Below, piece by piece: positions 3,535 to 6,833 of a stretch of DNA of 12,317 bases. The position numbers were made by a program, and so were the translations under genes. Source of the DNA: Promethearchaeota archaeon (GTDB lineage Archaea; Asgardarchaeota; Thorarchaeia; Thorarchaeales; Thorarchaeaceae); the NCBI GenBank assembly GCA_048939765.1, contig JBHLPF010000065.1:1-12317 (forward strand). Reading direction: 5' to 3'. The first letter of the stretch is position 1, and the number at the start of each line of letters is the position of its first letter. The notes under the pieces are model-generated. The model had not been told where the DNA came from, ran no database searches, and saw only the letters and a list, made by a program, of their open reading frames with translations.

Positions 3535-5202
3535 ATGAAAATCGCTATGGCTCAGATCAATCCTACAGTGGGCGACTTCTCGGGCAATACTGCCAAGATC
3601 CTTGAGTTTCTCTCTAAGGCCAAAGAACAGGATGCAGATGTCGTTGCCTTTCCTGAGATGGCGGTGGCTGGCTACCCTCCGCAAGACCTTCTCTTGGAAG
3701 GATCTTTTCTGGAAGCAAACCGAGCAGCTCTCAATGAAATTGTGAAGAAGACTAAGGGGATTATAGCCGTAGTGGGATTCGTGGACTATGACGATGAGGA
3801 TCTCTTCAATTCCGCGGCAGTAATTCAAAATGGTTCCATATTGAAAATCATCCATAAGACGCTCCTTCCCACTTACGACGTGTTTGATGAAGCCAGATAC
3901 TTCACACCATTAGAGCCTGAGCGGATTCAACCAGTTTCACTCAAGATTGGACGCCAAGAGGTTAAACTCGGTGTGCAGATTTGCGAAGACCTCTGGGACG
4001 ATGAATACGACATTAAGGTGACAAGTAGTCTTGTGGAACGTGGAGCTCAATTGATTCTCAACATCTCGGCTTCGCCTTTCTATACTGCAAAATGTTTCAA
4101 GAGGGAGGAAGAGGTTCGAGATAGAGCCGTGGCTAACAAGGTCCCTATCTTTCTCACCAATATGATAGGGGGGCAGGACGAGCTGGTGTTCTCTGGACAG
4201 AGCGTGGCGATAGATGCTGATGGCACAGTCATTGCCAGAGGCGCTGACTTTGAAGAAGATCTGGTTATAACTGAACTCGATCCTGATACAATGACTGCGC
4301 CAGAGGTTCCCTCGCCTGACTATGACAGATATAGAGAGATGTTCAGTGCTCTTGTCTTGGGCCTTCGAGACTACTTCAAGAAGACTGGTTTTCAGAGAGC
4401 AGTACTTGGTCTCAGTGGCGGCATAGACTCATCCTTGACAGCATGTATAGCTTCTGAGGCATTGGGTCCGAAGAACATAATCGGGGTTAGTATGCCATCA
4501 AAGTTCTCAAGCGACCATAGTGAGTCCGATGCAGATGTCTTGGCAAGAAATCTTGGTATCCATTTCGTGAAATCCTCAATACAATCAATCATTGACGAAT
4601 TTCATGCCTCCACAGAGGCCCTGCTTGTCAATTTGCGAACTCTTCATCATGCAAAGCCAGAAGATGATGATACAGTGGCTGATGAGAACATTCAGCCAAG
4701 AGTCAGAAGCAATATCCTCATGGACATTTCTAACCGATTTAGAGAACTTCACATTCTTGTGCTCAACACAGGCAATAAGACAGAGCTTGCCCTTGGCTAT
4801 TGCACTCTGTATGGTGACATGACGGGAGGTGTTGGGGTTATTGGCGATGTTAGCAAGCTTGAGGTCTACGCCTTGGCGAAGTGGTACAACAAGATGATAG
4901 GAAGACAAGTGATTCCCAAAGGCTCGATTGAGAAGAAACCATCTGCAGAGCTCAAGCCGGATCAATTTGATCCATTTGATTTTGATATTGTCAGTCCCCT
5001 GGTTGACGATATTATTGAGGATCGCAAGAGCCGGTCTGAGCTGGTTGAGATGGGCTATCCCTCGGAAGTAGTAAATGATGTCTATGGCAGAGTTCGTCGG
5101 GCAGAGTACAAACGCTGGCAGGCGCCTCCTTGCATCAAAATCACGCAGAAGGCTTTTGGCGTTGGTTGGAAGATGCCTATTGTCAATAAGCATCAAGGAT
5201 GA
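3535..5202 (+). CDS. nadE: Glutamine-dependent NAD(+) synthetase (CN-hydrolase/glutaminase domain plus synthetase domain)
   Basis: MKIAMAQIN start. Glutaminase triad in FPEM (E), HKTLLPTYDVFDE (K) and QICEDLW (C). ATP-binding LGLSGGIDS, ENIQPRVR, NTGNKTE..GYCTLYGD, PSAEL and EYKR.QAP. RBS GGTGAGG at 3524-3530. Confidence 0.97.
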   Translation: MKIAMAQINPTVGDFSGNTAKILEFLSKAKEQDADVVAFPEMAVAGYPPQDLLLEGSFLEANRAALNEIVKKTKGIIAVVGFVDYDDEDLFNSAAVIQNGSILKIIHKTLLPTYDVFDEARYFTPLEPERIQPVSLKIGRQEVKLGVQICEDLWDDEYDIKVTSSLVERGAQLILNISASPFYTAKCFKREEEVRDRAVANKVPIFLTNMIGGQDELVFSGQSVAIDADGTVIARGADFEEDLVITELDPDTMTAPEVPSPDYDRYREMFSALVLGLRDYFKKTGFQRAVLGLSGGIDSSLTACIASEALGPKNIIGVSMPSKFSSDHSESDADVLARNLGIHFVKSSIQSIIDEFHASTEALLVNLRTLHHAKPEDDDTVADENIQPRVRSNILMDISNRFRELHILVLNTGNKTELALGYCTLYGDMTGGVGVIGDVSKLEVYALAKWYNKMIGRQVIPKGSIEKKPSAELKPDQFDPFDFDIVSPLVDDIIEDRKSRSELVEMGYPSEVVNDVYGRVRRAEYKRWQAPPCIKITQKAFGVGWKMPIVNKHQG

Positions 5203-5267
5203 TTCAGTCATCTATGATCGCAGGATGGCTCGCTCCGTTGTCAAGGAAGAAGTCTGACAAGTAGAAG

Positions 5268-5393
5268 TTGTGTGGTGACCAGCGCCAACAAGGCTTAGGC
5301 CTTTTCCGAAGAGAAGGCCACTGGTAGGAGGGGGGGAGTTATGAGGGCATGTTACAGAATATAGGCCCTGTTAGCCGCCTGCTCACCACACAA
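5268..5393 (-). ncRNA. Candidate unidentified structured small RNA (~125 nt)
   Basis: Arms 5362-5393 and 5268-5297 form a ~28-bp stem, with the outer 11 bp perfect. Hairpin 5298-5319 reads GGCCUUCUC-UUCG-GAAAAGGCC on the minus strand. Two stem mismatches become G-U wobbles on the minus strand. TATA-like TTATTAGG starts at 5420, 29 nt before G5391. Confidence 0.6.
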
Positions 5394-5397
5394 GTTG

Positions 5398-5421
5398 TGT
5401 AGTGCACTACATCCTAATAAG
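5398..5421 (-). promoter_or_regulatory. Putative promoter (CTTATTAG) and 14-bp palindromic operator of the candidate small RNA
   Basis: Perfect palindrome TGTAGTGCACTACA at 5398-5411, between the TATA-like box (5421-5414) and the predicted start (~5391). Confidence 0.5.
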
Positions 5422-5472
5422 AACTACTCTCAGAATTCGTAAGCTGGCGCCTATTATGGGCTGAAAATTGAT

Positions 5473-5508
5473 GTTATGCCATAACGGTCAAATCACAATC
5501 CTATAAAG
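5473..5508 (+). promoter_or_regulatory. Promoter of the OsmC-family gene: palindrome plus TATA box
   Basis: GTTATG-C-CATAAC (5473-5485), then CTATAAAG (5501-5508) and RBS GAGGT (5530-5534) before ATG 5542. Confidence 0.55.
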
Positions 5509-5541
5509 GGCCTCTCGTTCCGGTCACATGAGGTCCGCTCA

Positions 5542-6000
5542 ATGACAGAAGAACATCGATACGAACTCGATAGCAACTGGATCCGTGAGAAGATCGTCAC
5601 TGTTGAGATTGAGGGTAAACCAACATTTGAAGTAGCCACCCCGCCTGATTTCTGGCCTGAATCTCCAAGAGAACTCATTTCACCCGAAGAGCTCTTCCTA
5701 GCGTCTGCCGTATCGTGTTATGGAGTTAGCCTCTCCGGCGTCGCAAAACGGTTCCATGCTGAGTTCTCTGAATTCTCAGTCAAGAGTGAAGCAACTCTGG
5801 CTAAAGGTGAGTCTGGATACGAATTTGACCAGATAACCATGGTAGCCAATATAGTTGTCCCAACCGAGCAGGATCGCAAAAGGATGGAAAAAGCGGCTCA
5901 AAGAGCTCACACATACTGCCTAGTAGCCAACTCGATGAAGTGTCCTGTCCATCTCAAAGTTGAGATAGTCGTTCCTGAGGCTCCTATTGCGCCCCATTAA
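5542..6000 (+). CDS. OsmC/Ohr-family peroxiredoxin-like protein
   Basis: TPPDF, SPEELFLASAVSCY (first Cys) and AHTYCLVANSM (second Cys); 152 aa. Confidence 0.9.
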   Translation: MTEEHRYELDSNWIREKIVTVEIEGKPTFEVATPPDFWPESPRELISPEELFLASAVSCYGVSLSGVAKRFHAEFSEFSVKSEATLAKGESGYEFDQITMVANIVVPTEQDRKRMEKAAQRAHTYCLVANSMKCPVHLKVEIVVPEAPIAPH

Positions 6001-6053: not shown

Positions 6054-6833
6054 CTATTTCCATTCGACCAATGCTTCAATAGCTGCATCGATGACCAAAT
6101 CGACTCCTCTTAGGAGCATCGGATCAATTTCTGGTCCAAAGAGCGGCTTTCCATGAAGCTGCAAATCTGATATACAGTTGATTGATGCTGCCGGGGTCTT
6201 GTTCTCCGAGGCTATCCCAAGAACCGCTGATGTTTCCATGTCCACTGCATGAGCTCCTCGCCGTATCCACTCTTGGAGTAGATCCTCTGTCTGCCTCAGG
6301 AGGACATCTGTTGTCCACATTGTCCCTCTATGTGTTGGCAAACCTGAATTCGCTGAATTAGTGAAGACCTGCTTGGTTAGAGTAGAGTCCGCATCTATCT
6401 TCTTTCCAGCTCCAAAATACACTGACGCCGCACCATCCCCCACAAGGACTGAATCAGCAACGAACGCATGACCAATACCATGCTCGCTTGATAGACCGCC
6501 ACAAAAGTCTGCACGAATGAATACTCGTGGATTGGTCTTCGCAATAGCATCCAAGAACATGATTGCAGCCGGCGAGCCAATCCCTGTGTCCAGAATACCT
6601 ATTGCTGTATCACCGTATTTTCCTGTCGTGAGCCTTCCCTTTGCCTTCTCGTTCTTGAGACGTGAAGCCGCTCCCTTCTTGAAGTTCCCAGTTGCAACTA
6701 CAAGAAGGCGGTCTGGAACATCATTAGCTCTAACGCCCAAAACACCCCTCACAATCCTCTCGTCCTGGGTCATGTTCTCAAATATCTTCGAAGCTATTCT
6801 TGCCTTCGCATGGTCTCTGGTTCGTGGCTTCAT
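6054..6833 (-). CDS. Nucleoside phosphorylase/nucleosidase family protein (PNP_UDP_1 fold)
   Basis: TGIGSPAA, FIRADFCGGL, GDGAASVY, HRGTMWTTD, GAHAVDMETSA and CISD motifs. Confidence 0.85.
   Translation of the reverse strand: MKPRTRDHAKARIASKIFENMTQDERIVRGVLGVRANDVPDRLLVVATGNFKKGAASRLKNEKAKGRLTTGKYGDTAIGILDTGIGSPAAIMFLDAIAKTNPRVFIRADFCGGLSSEHGIGHAFVADSVLVGDGAASVYFGAGKKIDADSTLTKQVFTNSANSGLPTHRGTMWTTDVLLRQTEDLLQEWIRRGAHAVDMETSAVLGIASENKTPAASINCISDLQLHGKPLFGPEIDPMLLRGVDLVIDAAIEALVEWK

Follow-up and report, generated by a model that had tools for sequence, protein, structure and literature searches.

A predicted family of structured small RNAs with an invariant C-rich loop in the Thorarchaeales

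Among the described small RNAs (sRNAs), close counterparts of the element reported here are the cuckoo RNAs of the Alphaproteobacteria (RSs0680/CcsR1-4 and alpha-r14), multi-copy sRNAs that combine variable stems with a fixed, anti-SD-like loop motif, CCUCCUCCC (PMC4615179). They consist of two to four adjacent short hairpins with CCUCCUCCC in each loop (PMC4615179); their genes are clustered and co-transcribed, and some members are stress-induced. The RoxS/RsaE sRNAs of the Firmicutes are associated with redox-related regulation, and the C-rich regions of RoxS have been demonstrated to pair with G-rich targets (PMC5419742). In the Archaea, sRNA41 and sRNA154 of Methanosarcina mazei are sRNAs that mask the ribosome-binding site (RBS) and repress translation (reviewed in PMC5867862).

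The window, by which we mean the whole 12,317-nt stretch of thorarchaeal DNA that was analysed, carries at positions 5268-5393 of its minus strand a predicted RNA gene that shares some properties with each of these groups. Like the cuckoo RNAs, it belongs to a multi-copy family with free stems, a fixed anti-SD-like loop and subsets of members in a conserved genomic context. Unlike them, the thorarchaeal RNA is drawn as one long panhandle around a ~45-nt loop with two motifs (UGCCCUCA and CUCCCCCCUCCUACCA), its genes stand alone, it has an archaeal host and a TATA-type promoter, and it exhibits no sequence homology to the cuckoo RNAs and no Rfam match; CCUCCUCCC is absent, and the thorarchaeal loop reads CUCCCCCCCUCCUACC instead. 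With RoxS and RsaE the RNA has in common several unpaired C-rich tracts able to pair with G-rich sequence and, through a neighbouring OsmC gene, a possible redox link. It is nevertheless non-homologous to these RNAs, with another fold and no Rfam RsaE hit, and target pairing is putative here. The resemblance to sRNA41 and sRNA154 lies in the archaeal host, the intergenic position, an own (here predicted) promoter and an anti-RBS sequence; compared by description, these two RNAs show no sequence or structural likeness to the thorarchaeal family of three paralogues, and they are single-copy, nitrogen-regulated RNAs of another phylum with known targets.

Y RNAs and stem-bulge RNAs (Y/sbRNAs) have a variable loop and a conserved, bulged stem helix that binds Ro. 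The thorarchaeal RNA is like them in its size, in a stem that closes its 5' and 3' ends, in its pyrimidine-rich interior and in the presence of several paralogues per genome, but it lacks the Ro60-binding helix, no TROVE protein was found in the 31 genomes searched, and its pattern of conservation is inverted.

Structure and strand of the predicted RNA gene

The element occupies a 340-nt gap in which a NAD synthase gene (3535-5202, plus strand) ends toward it and an OsmC gene is transcribed away from it. The features of the locus are listed here by window position; A1 is a plain MAFFT alignment of 42 hand-picked copies of the element.

5268..5393, minus strand: predicted type A small RNA gene, with closing stem, conserved loop and inserted hairpin (RNAfold, covariance model, orthologues)
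5364..5393, minus strand: 5' arm of the closing stem P1/P2, UUGUGUGGUGAGCAGGCGGCUAACAGGGCC, which pairs with 5268-5297
5268..5297, minus strand: 3' arm of the closing stem P1/P2 (fold and covariation)
5320..5363, minus strand: conserved single-stranded loop core, which contains ACUCCCCCCCUCCUACC; columns invariant in alignment A1
5342..5349, minus strand: invariant motif 1, UGCCCUCA, inside CAUGCCCUCAU (5341-5351); in 100/100 distinct copies
5322..5338, minus strand: invariant motif 2, CUCCCCCCCUCCUACCA, which includes CCUCCUA at 5325-5331; CUCCCCCC in 100/100 distinct copies, CCUCCUA in 93/100
5298..5319, minus strand: lineage-specific inserted hairpin with its UUCG cap at 5310-5307; in the window and L003-L005 only
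5413..5420, minus strand: TATA-like promoter box, TTATTAGG, 29 nt before G5391; equivalents family-wide
5240..5267, minus strand: pyrimidine-rich 3' flank, CUUCUACUUGUC...CUUCUUCC, where transcription may terminate
5542..6000, plus strand: OsmC-family gene that divergently adjoins the type A RNA (Pfam OsmC, E = 2.6e-16)

RNAfold pairs the minus-strand segment 5393-5364 with 5297-5268 through 26 base pairs, to which two further UA/UA pairs might be added, and the minimum free energy of -50.5 kcal/mol (z = -3.98) was equalled or bettered by none of 200 shuffled sequences. The first-pass annotation of this DNA had drawn a long closing stem, a C-rich loop and a UUCG-capped hairpin on the minus strand, a drawing that the folding of 5393-5268 reproduces, and it had found no fit to tRNA, 5S, SRP, C/D or H/ACA patterns. 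Across the whole window Rfam 15 gave no match at the gathering score and ARAGORN predicted no tRNA or tmRNA gene, and a permissive Rfam search of 5150-5550 returned StyR-3 alone, a chance match whose 13.6 bits (E = 4.1) compare with a threshold of 59. With these searches empty and the fold as drawn, the earlier description of the element is therefore accurate. We regard it as very probable that the minus strand of the segment carries a real gene for a structured RNA, with a predicted RNA length of ~125 nt here and of ~90-100 nt in most of its relatives. The type A orthologues within the same genus are 93-97% identical, and the gene itself is matched at 5274-5387 of the minus strand (81.3 bits, E = 6e-19) by R1, a covariance model that was built from the 42 diverse copies of A1 with a hand-set P1/P2 structure.

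Compensatory changes in the homologues, which the first-pass annotation had named as the evidence to look for, are found throughout the stem. In alignment A1, 91.6% of the stem cells are paired and 15 of the 21 pairs exhibit double changes, and none of 500 shuffles attained any of the five measures applied. Alignment A2, in which 100 distinct copies were aligned to the model, has 93.2% of its cells paired, double changes in 19/19 pairs and 231 compensatory cells, figures that the fit to the model inflates somewhat; when the 3' partner was slid by one to three columns as a control, the paired fraction fell to 30-48%. The plain alignment A1 gives the same picture as the model-fitted A2. The homologues retain the GGG that tops the 5' arm, and its 3' partners vary by way of G.U pairs.

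The minus strand had originally been chosen on the basis of the tetraloop, the wobble pairs and the TATA-like box, of which the last two hold and the first is not decisive. The plus strand of the element folds with a better energy than the minus strand (-61.3 kcal/mol, z = -5.82), so that folding energy and tetraloop cannot decide between the strands. In the summed pair table for the 100 distinct copies, ~281 of 1803 stem cells (~16%) hold G.U or U.G; since these would become A.C mismatches on the plus strand, and the promoter box is present on the minus strand only, the minus strand is fixed. In 85/97 distinct copies, the first model position is preceded at a distance of 26-33 nt by a TATA-like box (TTATTAG, TTAATAG or a close variant), most commonly at -28 or -29, and the copies that lack it are truncated or carry large insertions. 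The box and the G.U pairs thus support the prediction that the RNA is transcribed independently from its own promoter on the minus strand, as the first-pass annotation had proposed, and the distance from the box would place the transcript start near 5391/5390. At the other end, 96 copies were read with 60 nt of 3' flank, and in 62 of them a tract of the TTCT/TTxTT type begins no more than 15 nt past the stem; the window itself has no clear oligo-T run downstream of the stem.

A perfect 12-bp palindrome, GTAGTGCACTAC, is located at 5399-5410, between the TATA-like box and the predicted start. At the same site, relatives in the same genus have different yet dyad-symmetric sequences (GTGTAGACAC, GTATGGATAC and GTACAGTAC), and the palindrome may be an operator.

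Distribution and neighbourhood of the family

The genome of the window has three paralogues, namely the type A gene of the window, a type B gene at C74:11318-11414 (plus strand) and a type C gene at C87:9824-9906 (minus strand), which supplies the copy number that the first-pass annotation had left to be counted. The loop is the only part that is common to the three; their stems differ. A BLAST search in relatives gave matches in 31/36 same-family genomes and in no genome from beyond the family. The covariance model R1 was then applied to 150 further genomes sampled across the phylum, in line with the survey of Asgard genomes that had been suggested at the outset, and it detected the RNA in every genome sampled from the window's family (26/26) and, at 34 bits, in the one genome (1/1) of its sister family within the order, with no detection in the 123 sampled genomes from 25 other Asgard families. 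Copy numbers within the family range from one to nine per genome and are typically three. An exact-pattern scan of 185,579 species, each represented by one genome, found at least 115 stretches; among the matches listed, all belong to Candidatus Thorarchaeota/Promethearchaeota or to unclassified archaeal metagenome-assembled genomes except for ~4 bacterial ones, which we count as chance hits because their number is roughly the number estimated to arise by chance. Collectively, these matches define what is, on the comparative evidence, an uncatalogued family of predicted non-coding RNAs that is confined to the Thorarchaeales among the genomes searched and is represented by three old paralogue types per genome.

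Each of the types is found in a setting of its own. Among the 47 type A copies with enough flanking sequence, 42 have a divergent OsmC homologue upstream, and the downstream neighbour of type A varies, being the NAD synthase gene here and a gene for a vWA-domain protein in many other genomes. Type B divergently adjoins a gene for a 422-445-aa protein without a Pfam domain at 34 loci (L002:2-1267, on contig C74, and 33 others) or follows a gene for a PAS histidine kinase. No protein gene is common to the neighbourhoods of all three types. Since each type has its own conserved neighbourhood, the copies are best seen as vertically inherited orthologues and not as mobile repeats. The first-pass annotation had allowed that many dispersed copies with target-site duplications would identify the element as a MITE; there are three copies in the genome, each in conserved synteny, with variable termini and stems and a conserved centre and loop, and no target-site duplications were seen.

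The pairing of type A with a gene of the OsmC peroxidase family hints at a redox or stress connection, which we offer as a lead only. The OsmC gene beside type A is tandemly duplicated in many relatives (L016, L022, L023, L036, L045, L050, L074, L079, L086, L105, L109, L132 and L133), and several of the OsmC genes have a TATA-like box so near to the ATG that their mRNA would be leaderless or nearly so.

A few relatives carry partial copies without the 5' arm in which the loop and 3' arm are kept (L136, with 884-971 and 6078-6178 named; L129:829-930; L135:980-1081). In L136, a full copy is followed after ~5 kb by the partial one, with both pointing the same way, an arrangement that resembles an att duplication. 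The 5-kb interval holds genes for a solute-binding protein, a TPR protein and others and no integrase, and for want of an integrase between the full and partial copies the idea that truncated copies are scars of integration was rejected.

The conserved loop and its inserted hairpins

The freedom of the stem is matched by the constancy of the loop. Both invariant motifs are unpaired and C-rich, and within the ~45-nt loop UGCCCUCA and CUCCCCCC(C)UCCUACCA hardly change. UGCCCUCA and CUCCCCCC are each present in 100/100 distinct copies, with the sister-family homologue included for UGCCCUCA, and the longer CAUGCCCUCAU is present in 98/100. In all, ~30 bases of the loop stay unchanged in the three old paralogues, in 16 genera and in the sister family, whose homologue retains UGCCCUCA and AACUCCCCCCUCCUA; the CAU is absent from type C and from the sister family. 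The sequence CCUCCUA, found in 93/100 distinct copies, is a heptamer that also occurs in the 3' tail of the 16S rRNA of the window's genome, which reads GGAUCACCUCCUAAG. Of the seven exceptional copies, four have CCCCUUACCA or CCCCUACCA instead, in two the heptamer is interrupted by an added hairpin, and one is a degenerate partial copy.

The UUCG tetraloop, which the first-pass annotation had treated as a defining feature, turns out to be restricted to the closest relatives. Its hairpin is found only in the window and in L003-L005 (with UUCA in L004) and is cleanly absent from L006-L008 and L014 of the same genus, so that by comparison of the orthologues it is a recent lineage-specific insertion and not a feature of the family. 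In other lineages, unrelated hairpins have been inserted at three or more other positions of the loop. Such insertions are typical of a structured RNA in which the single-stranded segments would be the functional part. Copies with extra loop hairpins include L048:83-191, L125:4524-4645, L033:1983-2110, L029:1437-1611, L077, L127 and L119, and two of the inserted hairpins split the CCUCCU heptamer and pair part of its C-run with an inserted GGGG.

An A-U-rich inner hairpin, P3 (AGUUU..GUAA / UUAC..AAACU around a CAUGCCCUCA loop), can be drawn for types B and C as well as for the sister family, and more complementary variants of it occur in L093, L049, L131 and the sister-family genome G037. Because its energies are weak (0 to -5 kcal/mol) and its four loop-proximal pairs hardly vary, we treat P3 as a candidate helix. 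A resemblance to the anticodon loop of the initiator tRNA (CUCAUAAC) was also considered; it is limited to type A, without a counterpart in types B and C, and the idea of mimicry was rejected.

Putative roles and biological meaning

The RNA occurs in every genome of the family that was searched with the model, its three paralogues are ancient, and most protein motifs are less strictly conserved than its loop. These properties point to an important partner, which almost certainly exists. The best and most economical reading, and one that we hold tentatively, is that the RNA is a trans-acting C-rich riboregulator that pairs with the Shine-Dalgarno (SD) or translation-start (SD/TIR) regions of mRNAs. 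As a stable clamp, the stem would expose the C-rich loop, which in turn would base-pair in trans with G-rich SD or translation-start regions, and the pairing would block ribosome binding or alter mRNA stability, as described for the C-rich bacterial sRNAs and the anti-RBS sRNAs of Methanosarcina. Of the two exposed motifs, one includes the anti-SD heptamer of the genome's 16S rRNA. The order of sequences in the loop, 5'-CAU...CCUCCU-3', is antisense to an SD-spacer-AUG arrangement, and the window's genome makes use of SD sequences, with GGAGG and its neighbours peaking at 11-15 nt before the starts. The intergenic position, the promoter box in 85/97 copies and the covarying stem are those of a trans-encoded sRNA. 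When the whole genome was scanned, duplex windows of -14 kcal/mol or below numbered 1160 in start regions versus 836 in gene interiors, which is a mild or weak enrichment.

Searches for particular targets gave largely negative results. In 41 genomes, the 12-mer complement of motif 2, TGGTAGGAGGGG, occurs almost solely inside the sRNA genes themselves, and there is thus no conserved long antisense target; a search of the window's genome for a long antisense target beyond the three sRNA genes found scattered 11-13-mers only. The motif complements UGAGGGCA and GGGGGGAG show no pattern before long ORFs and lie mostly within coding sequence. The base after GGAGG at the starts is not enriched for G (15% versus 19% in the genome), from which it follows that ordinary SDs do not extend into a complement of the poly-C sequence. 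The start regions of the neighbouring OsmC genes differ from one another and lack complementarity to the loop, and in several of them no SD is evident.

One site in this genome can be mentioned separately. The sole 12-nt perfect complement of motif 2 outside of the sRNA genes, at C25:11843-11862 (L155), spans the SD region of a gene for a class I SAM-methyltransferase (TGGTAGGAGGGGACTCAATG), and in 40 other family genomes no comparable site was found to have the 12-mer. The possibility that the RNA serves as a guide for rRNA was dropped, because the best duplexes of the loop with the 16S and 23S rRNA of this genome and their 300-nt flanks (-38 to -34 kcal/mol) are no better than those of shuffled loops (means of -34 to -36 kcal/mol).

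A possible but more doubtful reading is that the RNA binds a protein or the ribosome, as a decoy, sponge or RNP scaffold, and that the invariant loop is a binding platform instead of a seed for mRNA. Putative binders might be, for example, a KH or poly(C)-type protein or a factor that recognises the 3' end of the 16S rRNA (Dim2/Pno1-, Nob1- or initiation-factor-like). The ~30 invariant bases exceed the usual need of a pairing seed and therefore fit such a partner at least as well as they fit mRNA pairing. The lack of a conserved antisense target and of a bias toward extended SDs, the identity of the heptamer to the 16S tail, the presence of the RNA throughout the family genomes searched, and the preserved GGG atop the 5' arm, which suggests a constraint beyond pairing, all lean in the same direction, whereas no protein gene is shared beside all three types and the 16S-like heptamer is dispensable in 7/100 copies. 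A more specific version, which we consider unlikely, is that the RNA is a lineage-wide component of a ribosome-related RNP, or a ribosome-related decoy, and not an mRNA regulator. In either form, and with the same small likelihood, the RNA would use the copy of the 16S heptamer in its loop, along with a second fixed motif, to titrate or guide a factor for small-subunit maturation or translation initiation, or it would dock on the 30S subunit. It is the weak and negative outcomes of the target tests, taken together with the ~30 invariant bases, that keep SD/TIR pairing tentative and a protein- or ribosome-binding role possible at a lower level, with the rest of the probability left to other roles.

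A role at the DNA level or in cis is highly improbable. Set between the NAD synthase and OsmC genes, the element might in principle be a bidirectional terminator or attenuator, the leader of a mini-ORF on the plus strand, or a MITE, and its location directly downstream of the NAD synthase gene, the strong plus-strand fold (z = -5.82) and a plus-strand GGAGG-N9-AUG followed by a seven-codon ORF could be read in this way. However, the ~16% of G.U stem cells break on that strand, the promoter box belongs to the minus strand, the downstream neighbour varies while the RNA does not, and neither type C nor the sister family retains the mini-ORF start; the three copies with variable ends and a conserved centre, and with no target-site duplications seen, are likewise unlike a MITE. 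The mini-ORF itself (5322-5350), with its near-ideal spacing, would encode MRACYRI here and MRACYEN in type B, and in view of the loss of its AUG elsewhere it is most likely a mirror image of the RNA motifs. Weakest of all is the first-pass suggestion of a Y or stem-bulge RNA, acting in RNA quality control together with a Ro60-like protein, since the bulged stem joining the 5' and 3' ends and the pyrimidine-rich internal region that prompted the analogy are accompanied by no Rfam Y_RNA match, by no TROVE domain (PF05731) in 31 genomes, including that of the window (88.5% complete), although the Deinococcus and Bacteroides controls were hit, and by a free stem (double changes in 19/19 pairs) and a fixed loop, the reverse of Y RNAs.

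A full-text search of the literature found no paper that describes a thorarchaeal C-rich-loop RNA, and the RNA is without an Rfam family. New in the present analysis are the A, B and C types with their type-specific synteny, above all that of type A with OsmC, and the sister-family homologue, all as predicted from genome comparisons; new as well are the UUCG hairpin as a recent insertion and the negative target tests.

The Asgard archaea are the closest prokaryotic relatives of the eukaryotes, and to our knowledge almost nothing is known about their regulatory and structural RNAs. The covariance model and the 100-copy alignment might provide the basis for an Rfam family, and they offer precise coordinates for checks in metatranscriptomes. 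If a ribosome-related factor is bound, the RNA would be part of a new RNP, and a ribosome-related decoy or RNP would represent a new class of housekeeping RNA that is specific to one Asgard order. If the masking of ribosome-binding sites is true, the RNAs would be the first conserved family of post-transcriptional regulators to be defined for the Asgard archaea and would be a case of convergence with the C-rich sRNAs of bacteria.
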